Below the pieces are notes generated by a model. That model made no database searches and was not told the DNA's origin. It saw only the letters and a program-made list of their open reading frames with translations. A DNA stretch of 64,000 nt from a virus (Duplodnaviria > Heunggongvirae > Uroviricota > Caudoviricetes > Straboviridae): positions 64,001-128,000 of the IMG/VR virus record IMGVR_UViG_2974656882_000001, one strand, 5' to 3'. A program made the position numbers and the translations under genes. This document shows positions 1 to 54,609 of this stretch, piece after piece. The first letter of the stretch is position 1, and each line of letters begins with the position of its first letter.

Positions 1-1791
1 ATCTGAATGGTCATAGATGCCAGTACCAGCAGTATCTCGTGTATTTGTGCCATTTTTAACTGGTGCTACACCGCCAGCAGCAACGAGTTTTGCTACGCCT
101 GCAAGATCTGTTCTTGCTCTACGTCCATCCAATTTCTTAGATGTAATAATTCTTGTGTCGTCGGTGTTGCTATCTGTTTCAGCTTGAGTAGCAATTTCAG
201 CAAGACCACGCATAGTTTCGGTGGCTTGTTTTTGATTCAACTTGAGAGGAGTAACTATATCAAAATCATTATAATTAGCGTCGTCGGTATTAAGTTGGTT
301 CTGTGCCCTAGTTGAAATTTTAGCTATACCTTGACGAGTTTCGGTAGCAGTTCTATTTGATAAAGTTTCAGGCGTAATAGCTACTTCTTTAGCTTCGGCG
401 GTTATAACAGATTTATCTAAATTCGCTTGAGCTTGGGTAGCTAATGCAATGACGCCTAATCTTCCACGTGTCGCATCCGATGAAGGGTCTACGCGTTCTA
501 ATGCAGGAATACAGTCGACCATTAGCCACTGCTTAATAGGCCCCATATCAATGTATGCAAACTTAATCACAGGTGGATAATCGCTATTGCCATTATATGA
601 CAAAATGTTGGTATTGACCCAATTGCCATCAGGTGGATAACTCGAACGTTTAGGGAACTGTGTAAGATTTTTATTAGTCAAAATCATATCAGTCCCTTTA
701 GGGACGATATTAACTGTTTGAGCCTTGCGCATATAATTCAATGCAATAGTGATTTGGTCACCAGGTTGCACATTATCAGGCAAAGTCAATTTAATTGTTT
801 GCGCAGTTACGTTATCTTTGCCGACTACTGTGACAGTTTCATTAGGGAACAAATCAGTATCAGTACTAACAGTTCGTAGTCGATCTACTGTATCTGTGTC
901 AAAAAGTACCCAAGTAGATGATGAGCTATTGTAAATAAAATAACCACTTAGTGAACGATAGAATATCTCTTTGTGGATACCTGGAGACATTATGCTTGTA
1001 TTAGAATCAAATGTGTTCAATTCTAGGTGGTAATACGGTACTGAATTTTTATTCATACCTACAAAATGAATAATATCACCATTGTTAGCGAATTTTGGGA
1101 ATGTCAACACAATAGGCGCAAGGCGATCATAATTACGAATAATTGTTTCACCTGATTGGACACGAATTGGACCCCCTGGTACAACTGTGCGAGCCACAGG
1201 TGCCTCGTCACCGTCGAATAATGACCATTGCTTCTTCGTATAAACAAATGTCCACTCAGAAAATGGAATAGTCATACGTTTTTGTGGGATGCTTGCGCCT
1301 TTATCAATAATAGATTCAACAGGGGCAATAACAATAACAGAAGTATACCCGGTCAAGCCGCCAATATCTTTAATAGAAATAGTGTCGCCTTCTTGTGGTG
1401 CTGGGGATGTTGGTAAAGTTAATTCTACGTCTAAACCTGCACGTGTATCAACAGAAATATAATCACCAACTTTTAATTGATACTTGCCAGAATCAAATGG
1501 GTACCATTTAGGGTCGGTACGCAATGGCTTCCAGTAACCTTCAAAGAATGTTCCTGCTGGTTTAGCAATATTTTGTTCGGCCATCCAAAGGCGACCATTA
1601 AATTCTACAATAAATCCTTTCTCATATGCACGAGAAGGATCATATTGTTGGGTTGTGTTTTCTTGGATGAGGTATTCAACGTTTACACCATCAGTCATGA
1701 CAGTTTTGTCAGCTTTTGCTACATTGATTACTTTTTCACCGGCTGCGTCCAACCCGTATGACGCACGGAAACTTGTTTTTACTTCAGACAT
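1..1791 (-). CDS. 34: Long tail fibre proximal subunit gp34, 5' part; runs off the window start
   Basis: ATG at 1791 reads MSEVKTSFRASYGLDAAGEKVINVAKADK, matching the T4 gp34 N-terminus; divergent from rnh as in T4. Confidence 0.93.
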   Translation of the reverse strand, partial: MSEVKTSFRASYGLDAAGEKVINVAKADKTVMTDGVNVEYLIQENTTQQYDPSRAYEKGFIVEFNGRLWMAEQNIAKPAGTFFEGYWKPLRTDPKWYPFDSGKYQLKVGDYISVDTRAGLDVELTLPTSPAPQEGDTISIKDIGGLTGYTSVIVIAPVESIIDKGASIPQKRMTIPFSEWTFVYTKKQWSLFDGDEAPVARTVVPGGPIRVQSGETIIRNYDRLAPIVLTFPKFANNGDIIHFVGMNKNSVPYYHLELNTFDSNTSIMSPGIHKEIFYRSLSGYFIYNSSSSTWVLFDTDTVDRLRTVSTDTDLFPNETVTVVGKDNVTAQTIKLTLPDNVQPGDQITIALNYMRKAQTVNIVPKGTDMILTNKNLTQFPKRSSYPPDGNWVNTNILSYNGNSDYPPVIKFAYIDMGPIKQWLMVDCIPALERVDPSSDATRGRLGVIALATQAQANLDKSVITAEAKEVAITPETLSNRTATETRQGIAKISTRAQNQLNTDDANYNDFDIVTPLKLNQKQATETMRGLAEIATQAETDSNTDDTRIITSKKLDGRRARTDLAGVAKLVAAGGVAPVKNGTNTRDTAGTGIYDHSD

Positions 1792-1826: not shown

Positions 1827-1882
1827 AAAAGCCGAGTATTGGTTCTTATGATTATTTATTAATCACATTAGTGTAAAGCATA

Positions 1883-1912
1883 GTTTACAACTGTATTTTT
1901 TGATGTTATAAT
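1883..1912 (+). promoter_or_regulatory. T4-type early promoter
   Basis: GTTTACA, 17-nt spacer, TATAAT. Confidence 0.8.
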
Positions 1913-1958
1913 GGTTCTACGGTTCACCGCTCTAAATTTATCTATTTGGTCGGAGAAG
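1903..1958 (+). repeat. 56-bp direct repeat, copy 1; candidate replication origin element
   Basis: ATGTTATAATGGTTCTACGGTTCACCGCTCTAAATTTATCTATTTGGTCGGAGAAG, identical to 33816-33871. Confidence 0.95.
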
Positions 1959-1993
1959 TATAGCTGCTGCGCAGTGTTTCTGAATAATCAGAT

Positions 1994-2018
1994 TGCTTCA
2001 TTATATTTTGTTTACAAT
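1994..2018 (+). promoter_or_regulatory. MotA-box middle promoter for rnh
   Basis: TGCTTCA, 12 nt, TACAAT. Confidence 0.7.
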
Positions 2019-2046
2019 ATTTCTATCATTTAAGAAGGATAATAGT

Positions 2047-3117
2047 ATGAGTTTAGACCACTTTTTTGAACCAGAAAAGCCTGGTGCACTACTTATCGAT
2101 TTGTCACAAATCGCTTTAGCAACTGTTGCAGTTACACATGAACCCGGTATGAAATTCACTACCGATATTGTTCGTCAACTTGTACTCTCAACAATTAAAC
2201 ATAATGCATTAAAATTTAAAGCTGATGGCTATGAAAAAGTCATTATTACAATTGATAATGCACGTTATGGTTATTGGCGACGTCAAGAAGAAGATTATTA
2301 TAAACGCAACCGTGCAATTGCACGTGCTGAAGCACAAGAATCTGATTCATTTGATTGGGAAGGCTATTTTGAAGCTCTTGGAATTGTTATTCAAGAATTA
2401 AAGGATAATATGCCTTGGATTATTATCGATGTCCGTCATTGTGAAGCCGATGATTGTATTGCAGTGCTATCTAAATATTTATCACTTAACGGCTATAAGG
2501 TTCGTGTTATTTCATCTGATGGTGACTTTACACAACTTCATAAAATTGAAGATTTAGATCAATATTCACCAGTTCAGAAAAAATTTGTAAAAGTCAAAAC
2601 TGGCTCGCCACAAGAAGATTGTCTAACTAAAGTTTTAAAAGGCGATCGCAAAGACTGTGTTGCATCGATTAAAGTTCGTGGTGACTTCTGGTTAACATAT
2701 GACCAAGACACTGAACGCACGCCAGCTACATCTGCAGATTTTGTTAAATCTCTTGTTGGCAAATCGGATGATGAAGTGTATAATGCATTTATGGCTGAAA
2801 TTTCTAAAAAGGCATCAAGCAAAAAAGTAGGTGTTGAAAATTGCCATAAACTGCTAAAATTACAAGGCATTGATGTTGATCAATCTCCTGAATTATATAC
2901 CGACACTACAGTTATGGCAACAAAAATCGCAGACTTGTGGATGCATCGTTTCAAACGCAATCGTGTATTAATTGACTTTGATTATATTCGTGATGATATT
3001 CGTGAATCAATTATTGATGCATATAAATCATACACACCTGCTCCACGCGGCAAAACATATTCATATATGGTCAAAAACAAGTTAACCAAACTTCTTAAAG
3101 ATCTCAATTGCATTTGA
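2047..3117 (+). CDS. rnh: RNase H / 5' nuclease, FEN1-like
   Basis: LLIDLSQIA, EADDCIA, SSDGDFTQLHK and VLIDFDYI motifs; ATG 2047 follows AAGGA; synteny 34-rnh-dsbA. Confidence 0.95.
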   Translation: MSLDHFFEPEKPGALLIDLSQIALATVAVTHEPGMKFTTDIVRQLVLSTIKHNALKFKADGYEKVIITIDNARYGYWRRQEEDYYKRNRAIARAEAQESDSFDWEGYFEALGIVIQELKDNMPWIIIDVRHCEADDCIAVLSKYLSLNGYKVRVISSDGDFTQLHKIEDLDQYSPVQKKFVKVKTGSPQEDCLTKVLKGDRKDCVASIKVRGDFWLTYDQDTERTPATSADFVKSLVGKSDDEVYNAFMAEISKKASSKKVGVENCHKLLKLQGIDVDQSPELYTDTTVMATKIADLWMHRFKRNRVLIDFDYIRDDIRESIIDAYKSYTPAPRGKTYSYMVKNKLTKLLKDLNCI

Positions 3118-32712: not shown

Positions 32713-33357
32713 ATGTTTGAAAAAACTTTTGATGTTAAATTAAACGGCCAACTTGTCAAATGTAAATCATACACGCTACACGACTACACTAAACTAATTA
32801 TTTCTAAGGATTCTCCGACATCTGATGCAATGAAATCTGTTTACACGGAAATAATTAATAAGTGTACTGGCTTAACAAACCTTCCTAAACATGATGCAGA
32901 ATTGGTTCTCATAAATCTTATTGCAAATTCTGAACATTTTGGTGAAGTCAAACAAGATTATGTCTGTGAGTGCGGACATACGCAACCAGTCAATTTAGAT
33001 GTGTCTAAAGTACAAATTGATTATGGCGAATCATCATTGGAAAAATTATACCCATTTAAAAAGTTTAAACTGGCATTTAAATGGCCTGAACTATGGGATG
33101 ACGATGACATTCCTACAATGATTGCAAAGTCTATAGAATCAATTTACGTTGGCAATGAGAAAATTTTGATTGAAGACTTAAATGAATTAGAAATTGAAGA
33201 CTTGTACAATGCAATAACAGAAGATGATATTAATTATATCAAAAAATTCTTATTAGCTCCTATGCCGGTTTTAGTAGTGCCAATAACTTGCGCACAATGC
33301 GGCAAGGCTCATGTACATGTTATTAAAGGCTTCAAAGAATTTGTCGAGATTTTATAA
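32713..33357 (+). CDS. 26: Baseplate hub subunit gp26
   Basis: CxC and CxxC motifs; synteny 51-26-25. Confidence 0.85.
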   Translation: MFEKTFDVKLNGQLVKCKSYTLHDYTKLIISKDSPTSDAMKSVYTEIINKCTGLTNLPKHDAELVLINLIANSEHFGEVKQDYVCECGHTQPVNLDVSKVQIDYGESSLEKLYPFKKFKLAFKWPELWDDDDIPTMIAKSIESIYVGNEKILIEDLNELEIEDLYNAITEDDINYIKKFLLAPMPVLVVPITCAQCGKAHVHVIKGFKEFVEIL

Positions 33358-33755
33358 TGCAAAATATTAATGACCTCTACACGGATATTTCTCCTGAACT
33401 TACTCGTGCGTGGAATATGGATGTCGCAGCGTCTGTAGGAGCAAGAGCAGTTAAAAACTCCTTATTAGGAATTATTACTACACCCAAAGGCTCTCGCCCA
33501 TTTGACCCAGAATTTGGATGTGACATCGGCAATGCTCTTTTTGAAAATATGTCGCCATTGACTGTCAACACGGTAGAAAAAAGCATAACATCAGCTATTA
33601 GAACTTATGAACCACGTATAGTTAGACTCAATGTTATGGTGCAAGCACAATATGATAATAACGCAATAATTGTTACTGTTACATTTAGTATATTAGATAA
33701 CCCTGATACCCTAGAACAAATTAAAATACAGTTAAGTGGAGATAGATCGCAGTGA
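33357..33755 (+). CDS. 25: Baseplate wedge / sheath initiator gp25
   Basis: GSRPFDPEFGC..LFE and AIRTYEPRI. Confidence 0.95.
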   Translation: MQNINDLYTDISPELTRAWNMDVAASVGARAVKNSLLGIITTPKGSRPFDPEFGCDIGNALFENMSPLTVNTVEKSITSAIRTYEPRIVRLNVMVQAQYDNNAIIVTVTFSILDNPDTLEQIKIQLSGDRSQ

Positions 33756-33794
33756 TTAAAATTTAATCATATAAATCGCCTTATTTATAAGCAT

Positions 33795-33825
33795 AAAATG
33801 CTTTACGAAATTTGTATGTTATAAT
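33795..33825 (+). promoter_or_regulatory. MotA-box-like promoter at the T4 PuvsY position
   Basis: AAAATGCTTTA, 14 nt, TATAAT; spacer one nt longer than consensus. Confidence 0.55.
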
Positions 33826-33871
33826 GGTTCTACGGTTCACCGCTCTAAATTTATCTATTTGGTCGGAGAAG
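33816..33871 (+). repeat. 56-bp direct repeat, copy 2
   Basis: Identical to 1903-1958. Confidence 0.95.
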
Positions 33872-33905
33872 ATAGAGTTTCTGATGATTTAGATGTATTA
33901 GAGTC

Positions 33906-33913
33906 TATAAATA
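33906..33913 (+). promoter_or_regulatory. Late promoter
   Basis: TATAAATA 27 nt upstream of uvsY.-2. Confidence 0.7.
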
Positions 33914-33940
33914 TATCTAATACGATATTGGAGAATAATA

Positions 33941-34108
33941 ATGGAAACACGTATTTGTTCGGTATGTAAGATGCCGATTGATGAAGCATTGGTAGTTGAG
34001 ACTGATCAAGGACCTGTCCATCCTGGACACTGCTTGCAGCATATTCAGGACTTGCCTGTTTTAGAATCTAACGATGACATTTTATTAGAAACAGAGCTAT
34101 TGCTATGA
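33941..34108 (+). CDS. uvsY.-2: UvsY.-2 homolog, 55 aa; not in the ORF track
   Basis: METRICSVCKMPIDEALVVETDQGPVHPGHC...LLETELLL; GGAG SD. Confidence 0.88.
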   Translation: METRICSVCKMPIDEALVVETDQGPVHPGHCLQHIQDLPVLESNDDILLETELLL

Positions 34109-53691: not shown

Positions 53692-54609
53692 TTACCCCAT
53701 TAAAATTCCAGGTGGAGCTGCTAATAAATCTAATTCGTCACGTAAGCGTTCTTTTTCTATTCGTGATTCTTCGATAAGACGCAATCCATCTACTGTGGTA
53801 CCACCAGCTAATTGCATGCCTTGGTGCTTGGCTAAAATTTGGCCATTGAGTTCTTTGACTAATGCCGTTGCATAATCTTTTACCCAGCGATTATTAAATG
53901 CACCTTGTTTGACACCTGCATTTTCACCTGCTCTATATCCCGCAACTCGTCGATTTGCATTATTATATGTTTCAGATAATGTCCACGGGTCTTGTTCAGG
54001 TTGAGCATATGCATATCCTGCATATGTGCCAACGGATGGACCTGTGTCAACAAATGATTTTGTCCATACTTCAAGGAACATAAAATCGCCCTTTTTAAAA
54101 TTTCCGGATAATTTCAATTGCCCGGTGTCATCATTAAACCAATAGTCTGGCACAGGATTAAGCATATTCTGAAGTATTGTCCAGTATTGCATAACCGATG
54201 TGTAGTAACTAAGATTTGCGCCATATGCATTTGGACCAAATGATTGTGCAGAAGAACATCCGTTTACACCAGCTAATCCTAGAATAAAGTCAGTTACCCA
54301 TGGATAAGTAGCAGAACCATCCATTGTTAATAATGCACCAGTATTGCCTCTAATGACTTGTGTTATAGCAAAAATATTTTCATTTGATAAATCAAAAACT
54401 CCATTTTTGTATTGTTCATCATCTCCTACATAAACCCACATAAAGGTTTTGTTCAGTCCGTTGTAATGATACTCGCCATATAACTCTAATGCTCGTTGAA
54501 TACAGTGCATTATCTGCTGTTCTGTTACTTCTATTTTAATAATTGGTGCACCTAAACGCATCAAAATGTGATCTTTAAGTTGTTTAGGTGTTTTAGGTTC
54601 TGTAAACAT
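53692..54609 (-). CDS. 13: Neck protein gp13
   Basis: [35 protein letters not shown]; GAGGT SD before ATG 54609. Confidence 0.94.

Follow-up and report, generated by a model that had tools for sequence, protein, structure and literature searches.

Five fixed copies of a promoter-bearing repeat in Acinetobacter T4-like phages: candidate transcript-primed replication origins

Why does a T4-like phage carry one and the same promoter-bearing sequence beside genes 34 and 25, two genes at which T4 has replication origins? The window, as we call the whole 64,000-nt stretch of DNA analysed here, comprises bases 64001-128000 of a 168,223-bp virus record that shows 100% identity, in the part that was compared, to Acinetobacter phage AB-Navy71 (Hadassahvirus, Straboviridae). 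Sequence comparison within the window finds two segments identical at 56 of 56 nt (copies 1 and 2 in Table 1), with TATAAT lying 4 nt inside each block; the match stretches to 61 nt at 97% (1898-1958 versus 33811-33871), and no other repeat within the window is comparable to this pair. A preliminary description of this DNA proposed that the phage uses one shared primer-RNA or origin cassette fired from two classes of promoter, and that both copies lie at T4 origin loci. The idea of a shared cassette is compatible with all the findings and is strengthened by the presence of five near-equidistant, fixed copies, by the two that lack a gene, and by the resemblance to the T4 oriF promoter, but the hairpin proposed along with it is not conserved, and the origin role is one that we infer.

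The origins of T4 share no local motif, and what sets their position is unclear (PMC3016281). Both oriF and oriG need a middle promoter and an AT-rich unwinding element, and R-loop formation at oriF is reported to need no specific sequence, its unwinding element being replaceable; work on plasmid replication is described for these two origins only, and oriC is located near rI.-1 (PMC3016281). The T4 record places oriF, the ori(uvsY) of the preliminary description, directly after gene 25, exactly where that description had it. Its placement of ori(34) at 34/rnh needs correcting, since in the T4 record oriG, with its promoter P34i, lies about 2.1 kb inside gene 34, reading toward rnh. Judged by these positions, copy 2 is orthologous to oriF, whereas copy 1 lies about 2 kb from oriG and is only roughly syntenic with it, and c5, one of the copies outside the window, has no T4 counterpart.

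Five copies at fixed loci

The whole genome holds five copies of the repeat, three of them exact, one with a 1-nt insertion and one (c5) about 85% identical and spanning the start of the record; the earlier statement that the sequence occurs exactly twice is thus true only inside the window. Matches come from about 50 records of Hadassahvirus and Lazarusvirus, and almost all of these have five places. Two records with six places were checked, and the excess traces in one to an assembly gap filled with N and in the other to weak matches with the promoter only. Seven genomes from two genera, checked in detail, agree in the five loci and in how the copies are oriented relative to one another, and the order of the copies is likewise retained in the five further genomes in which they were located. 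A search of IMG/VR for distant carriers of the invariant 21-mer found only one further genome, of the same clade. The wider search that the preliminary description had called for gives five fixed sites in nearly all genomes, two of them without a gene, and not the many scattered copies before ordinary genes that a generic leader would give.

Table 1. Features of the window, the five cassettes and the sequences compared with them (window coordinates unless a record is named; G000, the whole 168,223-bp genome)
Feature	Coordinates	Strand	Basis and remarks
Gene 34 (long tail fibre proximal subunit), 5' part	1..1791	-	ORF and AB-Navy71 annotation; divergent from copy 1
AT-rich imperfect palindrome TGATTATTTATTAATCA	1849..1865	.	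Alignments; ~45 nt 5' of copy 1 -10
Copy 1 promoter	1884..1912	+	Sigma70-type -35 TTTACA (1884-1889), spacer 17 nt, extended -10 TGTTATAAT (1904-1912; TATAAT 1907-1912)
Copy 1 (c1), exact 56-nt block	1903..1958	+	Gap between divergent genes 34 and rnh; predicted start A1919; cross-genus invariant core 1913-1935
Copy 1 variable leader	1959..2046	+	GC hairpin word CTGC-TGC-GCAG (1964-1974), then AT-rich to rnh start
rnh (RNase H)	2047..3117	+	ORF and AB-Navy71 annotation; first gene 3' of copy 1
Gene 25 (baseplate wedge)	33357..33755	+	Copy 2 directly 3', like T4 oriF/PuvsY
AT-rich palindrome TGATTAAAATTTAATCA	33753..33769	.	Overlaps gene 25 stop; late-promoter-like TATAAAT next (33770-33776)
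Copy 2 promoter	33799..33825	+	MotA-type box TGCTTTA (33799-33805), spacer 14 nt, TGnTATAAT (TATAAT 33820-33825)
Copy 2 (c2), exact 56-nt block	33816..33871	+	Directly after gene 25, before UvsY.-2 (DUF2685) homologue; predicted start ~33832
Copy 2 AT-rich leader	33872..33940	+	Contains TTTAGATGTAT (33888-33898); candidate unwinding or iteron-like zone
UvsY.-2 homologue (DUF2685)	33941..34108	+	First gene 3' of copy 2
c3			Gene 3/gene 2 gap; opposite to these late genes
c4			Immediately 5' of Srd homologue (phrog_1400, E = 8e-53), ~2 kb from dda; opposite to flanking early genes
c5	G000 ~168,150-168,223 joined to 1-10; Lazarus L029 ~1480-1520		Inside insert splitting DNA polymerase gene; coordinates given are those of its stem-loop region
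MotA homologue	G000 53,736-54,200	+	34% identity to T4 MotA residues 49-205, E = 8e-21 (tblastn)
T4 oriA	16,763		T4 record annotation
T4 oriE	79,355		T4 record annotation
T4 oriF	115,321		T4 record annotation; after gene 25
T4 oriG	152,947		T4 record annotation
T4 site 1			oriF/PuvsY
T4 site 2	NC_000866 11,885-11,908 (L051:2860-2920)	+	modA/srd gap, 5' of srd; opposite to flanking genes
T4 site 3	NC_000866 75,988-76,011 (L052:2465-2530)	+	Gene 3/gene 2 gap; opposite to flanking genes
Phage 133 module	NC_015250 110,278-110,388	-	
Phage 133 module	NC_015250 73,243-73,344	+	
Phage 133 module, partial copy	NC_015250 73,127	+	

Three of the copies are leaders of real genes: c1 of rnh (128 nt before the gene), c2 of uvsY.-2 (109 nt) and c5, at a similar length, of an ORF in the polymerase insert. 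No ORF follows c3 or c4, which end at intrinsic terminators about 130 nt from the start, and uvsY itself is absent from the site of copy 2 after gene 25. In AB-Navy71 (OL770260 46,775-51,232) an insert of about 1.6 kb, with five small ORFs and c5, interrupts the gene for DNA polymerase, and the record annotates this split as an intron. The five repeats seem to cause breaks or confusion in the assembly of these phages: the virus record begins inside c5, 2 nt before TATAAT, and the assembly OZ075066 (AB-Navy-v2) contains a run of N with a duplicated c3.

The gaps between the five copies measure 36.2, 29.7, 31.9, 38.3 and 32.1 kb. For five uniform random points on a circle, a minimum gap at least this large has P = 1.9e-4, and with placement limited to the 39 intergenic gaps that measure 100 bp or more the same test gives P = 6.5e-5; Lazarus phages have similar gaps, and the even spacing is a single inherited arrangement across all the genomes, not a set of independent cases. 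The cumulative GC skew has strand-switch minima at c1, c2 and c3, and c4 and c5 lie within the early block. The T4 origins are split by skew in the same manner, oriE, oriF and oriG against oriA and oriC (PMC3016281).

Anatomy and conservation of the cassette

Each cassette covers about 130-190 bp and consists of a palindrome, a promoter, an invariant initial transcribed block, a mosaic of GC hairpins and AT-rich TAGATGT-like repeats. According to the alignments, a version of the palindrome TGATyAAAwTTTrATCA precedes all five copies, about 45-60 nt before the -10, and its region is the least stable upstream 40-mer zone (98th to 99.9th percentile). In Hadassahvirus a late-promoter-like TATAAAT(A/C) (window 33770-33777) is found about 45 nt 5' of the cassette -10 at c2 and c4; it is not kept in Lazarus-type phages. 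The two promoter classes reported for the window copies, TTTACA-17 nt-TGnTATAAT in copy 1 versus TGCTTTA-14 nt-TGnTATAAT in copy 2, are borne out genome-wide: as read from the sequence only, four of the five promoters combine the MotA box TGCTTTA with TGnTATAAT and the 34/rnh copy alone has TTTACA-17-TGnTATAAT, an early-type -35 that recurs at the 34/rnh locus of Lazarus-type phages. The genome encodes a MotA homologue (Table 1) but gives no match to the Pfam model of the MotA N-terminal activation domain, so that the activation half of the protein may be divergent.

At some copies the MotA box forms the 3' half of a stem-loop. The stem-loop of c5 is perfect (CGTAAAGCA-N6-TGCTTTACG) and with its T-run looks like the terminator of the upstream gene; since its 3' half is the MotA box of the cassette, terminator and middle promoter would overlap there.

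The extended -10 is followed by a GG-bearing discriminator, GGTTCT, and then by the predicted start A, which was assigned on the model of PuvsY, whose mapped start (T4 115371) lies seven nt past the -10. Next comes the invariant block, ACCGGTTCACCGCTCTAA. The -10 and about 24 nt after it, a stretch that takes in the discriminator and the first part of the transcript, are the same in almost all copies examined from both genera, save for a 1-nt deletion variant and two point changes, although identity in the flanking genes is only about 80%. Beyond it, ~20 nt are specific to the genus and common to the copies within a genome, and the 1-nt deletion is found in three copies of this genome and in one of phage Minot. 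Because the genus-specific substitutions and the deletion are common to copies within a genome, the copies evolve in concert.

Farther downstream, GCTGC(TGC)GCAG occurs in four of the five cassettes (the word has only nine matches genome-wide, counting both strands), GGCGC-NNN-GCGCC keeps its stem with a varying loop, and GCGCCGAAA and CTGAATATT also recur in the mosaic. There are one or two TAGATGT-like words per cassette and a 19-nt tandem duplication in one Lazarus copy, and no regular array. The least stable 40-mers near the promoters lie at +48 to +133 (97th to 99.9th genome percentile), for c1 at +94 (99.8th) and for c2 at +69 (99.9th), and also at -77 to -60, in a genome whose intergenic DNA is AT-rich in general; the transcript from +1 to about +45 is not AT-rich, nor are the GC hairpins in three copies. 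The AT-rich DNA said to follow each copy comes directly after copy 2, but in copy 1 the GC hairpin word comes first.

A conserved transcript start could belong to co-regulated short RNAs or leaders with a non-replicative job, the 5' block being an RNA element or operator to which some factor of phage or host binds; transcript stability, timing, translation and promoter shut-off are possible roles, and the gene-less units could then be small RNAs of ~130 nt. Such an explanation accommodates both the two discrete promoter-to-terminator units without an ORF and the three copies that lead real genes, it is in keeping with the GGCGC-NNN-GCGCC stems, and a recognition element predicts a strictly conserved transcript start, which the T4 R-loop model does not require. 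The structural tests go the other way. A search of the leaders against Rfam returned 0 matches at E up to 1, ruling out a known RNA family, and the whole-leader fold z-scores (0.16, -2.2, -2.2, 0.27 and 0.21) are mostly near zero, no better than shuffles for three of the five copies. The only shared hairpin, the CCG..CUAAAU pairing that had been suggested from the window, is able to fold but shows 0 compensatory pairs; of its nine pairs, two do not hold in most sequences, pairs are broken in the Lazarus type, and the fifth copy lacks the hairpin, which excludes it as a functional core. With an Rfam negative, shuffle-level folds and no covariation, a conserved structured RNA is not supported. 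Indels, block swaps and tandem duplications, moreover, set the downstream parts of the copies apart, comparison across lineages showed no complementary target or motif in common, and the near-equal spacing is left without a reason. We regard short RNAs of this kind, the main rival to an origin role, as rather unlikely.

Concerted evolution could also be the whole story, with gene conversion alone keeping a repeated promoter module uniform, or with a mobile or shuffling cassette of the PeSL type that is merely a strong promoter or a substrate for inversion between copies in opposite orientation. PeSLs are reportedly promoter-early stem-loop cassettes of RB49/phi1-type phages, said to have been described by Arbiol and colleagues in 2010. 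The likeness lies in near-identical promoter-bearing repeats in a T4-like genome, some with a stem-loop overlapping the -35 region, as at the MotA box of some copies here; the spread of variants such as the 1-nt deletion and the arrangement of copies in inverted pairs would also fit. Other repeat families of 50-97 nt and 76-88% identity exist in the genome (G000 22.8-32.6 kb, 41.1 kb, 138.1 kb, 149.5 kb and 167.5 kb); they are distinct from the five-copy family, are probably PeSL-like promoter cassettes, and count in favour of this explanation as lower-identity cassettes of early regions. PeSLs, however, are many, in hyperplastic early regions before variable small ORFs, whereas the five cassettes occupy fixed loci that include late-gene regions (two copies are within or next to late blocks and two lack an ORF), do not border on variable small ORFs, are mostly of middle and not early type (four of five promoters), and have their conserved part 3' of the -10. 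The same loci and orientations in every genome checked from two genera, the five places in nearly all of ~50 records, and a block invariant across ~20% genome divergence are likewise hard to reconcile with a mobile or merely converted element. A generic-leader or PeSL reading was therefore rejected as the main explanation, given the fixed five loci across relatives and the distinctness of the other cassette families.

Sibling promoters in T4 and antisense pairs in other lineages

A search of T4 with its own oriF region uncovered two sibling promoters. The pattern TATAATG(A/G)(A/G)TCTAAGTCC..CCA matches exactly three T4 sites, and the reversed-pattern control matches 0; the three sites (Table 1) match the loci and orientations of c2, c4 and c3. 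Each has a MotA box 12-13 nt upstream, a consensus box at both siblings, where the T4 consensus for the spacing to the -10 is 12 +/- 1 nt (PMC2988021). The siblings share with PuvsY/oriF the -10, the discriminator and about 15-20 transcribed bases, and neither is included in the table of ~58 T4 middle promoters (PMC2988021). P34i appears, by eye, weakly similar to the family. The oriA (P56/69) and oriE promoters were also considered as members and show no convincing resemblance. Neither T4 look-alike is annotated as an origin; oriA and oriE are assigned to other promoters, 3-5 kb from the look-alikes.

The region after gene 25 was then compared with the gene 3/2 gap in the 26 IMG/VR T4-like contigs (19 non-redundant) that have both loci. 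In six sequence-distinct lineages the two match, on the antisense strand only, with z from 6.9 to 65 (phage 133, 65; Lazarus type, 51; a 166-kb lineage, 51; probable CC31/PG7 type, 13; T4 type, 8; another, 6.9), and same-strand scores are at background. About ten IMG/VR lineages gave no match between these loci, and the post-gene-25 region of a Klebsiella Jiaodavirus has no second copy. Paired sites both carry a MotA-like box, TATAAT and a GGnTyT discriminator, and the lineages checked further (phage 133, CC31/PG7 type and the 166-kb lineage) have two clear copies. In Acinetobacter phage 133, which belongs to another genus, a different-looking module of ~110 nt is found after gene 25, in the gene 25/uvsY gap, and antisense in the gene 3/2 gap; its 5' 62 nt and 3' 26 nt are identical around a divergent middle, and in the gene 3/2 gap its promoter part is tandemly duplicated. 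The family thus drifts between lineages and stays matched within a genome, which makes the five-copy cassette an expanded form of an old promoter family. The occurrence in T4, phage 133, Karamvirus and others of matched promoters at the same two or three loci further weakens the case for conversion or mobility as the sole cause, as does a shared tract that in some lineages is only ~20 nt long, too short for efficient conversion, and we consider that explanation improbable. The T4 sibling promoters and the cross-lineage antisense pairing are new results here; the part of the literature that we covered contained no description of the T4 siblings or of the repeat.

The cassettes as candidate origins, and known systems compared

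Our preferred reading is that the five cassettes are transcript-primed replication origins, to which, from the sequence evidence, we would give roughly an even chance. It is drawn from the orthology of copy 2 with a proven origin promoter (oriF), the gene-less copies, the fixed copy number, the near-equal spacing, and the T4 parallels in skew and transcription pattern. Host RNA polymerase, acting with MotA/AsiA at four of the sites, would make a short transcript that would remain hybridised as an R-loop in or beside easily melted DNA; the RNA would be trimmed and would then prime leading-strand synthesis, and the displaced strand would load the helicase-primase. Against the cassettes being origins stand the start of the transcript, which is not AT-rich, the 14-nt MotA spacing in promoters that are otherwise of T4 origin type by sequence (12 +/- 1 in T4), the lack of a T4 counterpart for c5, and the fact that the T4 siblings are not known origins.

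Since R-loop formation in T4 is reported to need no specific sequence, the T4 model alone does not explain why the transcribed block is so strictly conserved. Blocks identical within a genome and different between genera imply sequence recognition, by a protein or a polymerase complex, or gene conversion, or both, and the invariant block itself suggests a sequence-specific recognition of the open complex, the nascent RNA or the displaced strand, which if true would be a new feature of the T4-type class of origin. More tentatively, as a possibility that we hold with some doubt, origin promoters in T4-like phages may form a small family in which the discriminator and the initial transcribed bases are matched within a genome and drift between lineages; its core pair would be the site that follows gene 25 and the one lying antisense in the gene 3/2 gap, to which T4 would add the srd site and the Acinetobacter phages would bring the number to five. 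Should this hold, origin firing would need sequence-specific recognition of the transcript start or open complex, and T4 would have two unrecognised initiation sites, near 11.9 kb and 76.0 kb, which may underlie the mapped oriA and oriE activities.

If the cassettes are origins, they offer a sequence signature for finding origins in T4-like phages, a reason for the spacing of origins and a defined element to mutate, which bears on the engineering and understanding of therapeutic Acinetobacter phages in the clade, AB-Navy71 among them; otherwise, the conservation of a gene-less RNA family at set positions of T4-like genomes still needs explaining.

Among known systems, the primers of ColE1 (RNA II) and of the mitochondrial light-strand promoter resemble the proposed mechanism in that an RNA made from a promoter, with defined requirements of sequence or structure, would stay paired with the DNA and serve as the primer for synthesis; the systems are not homologous, the short RNA here has no supported structure, and the comparison is one of analogy only. 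T4 oriE has an early-promoter transcript antisense to the late gene 5, 12-nt iterons, and the proteins RepEA and RepEB. Similarly, c3 would be transcribed antisense to late genes (gene 2), at a distance of about 2-3 kb from gene 5, TAGATGT short direct repeats lie downstream, and one cassette has an early-type promoter. However, c3 lies in the gene 3/2 gap with a MotA-type promoter, the T4 oriE promoter sequence is not in the family, and the one or two short repeats here are unlike the regular iteron array of oriE or of plasmid R6K gamma.

The closest parallels are with oriF and oriG. Copy 2, directly after gene 25 and reading away from it, has a MotA box and an extended -10 like oriF/PuvsY, and in its discriminator and initial bases it looks like the T4 family (TATAATGGnTCTA); copy 1, coming from the side of gene 34, is directed toward rnh, as is oriG [ori(34), P34i]; and in both phages easily melted DNA is near and the transcript of the origin, here a candidate one, can double as the mRNA of the next gene. 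The differences are that copy 1 lies in the 34/rnh gap with an early-type -35, not inside gene 34, that the MotA spacing is longer, that GC hairpins and terminators follow some copies, and that the cassettes are candidate origins. Whereas the T4 origins are without a common local motif (PMC3016281), the five sites described here share at least 56 nt.
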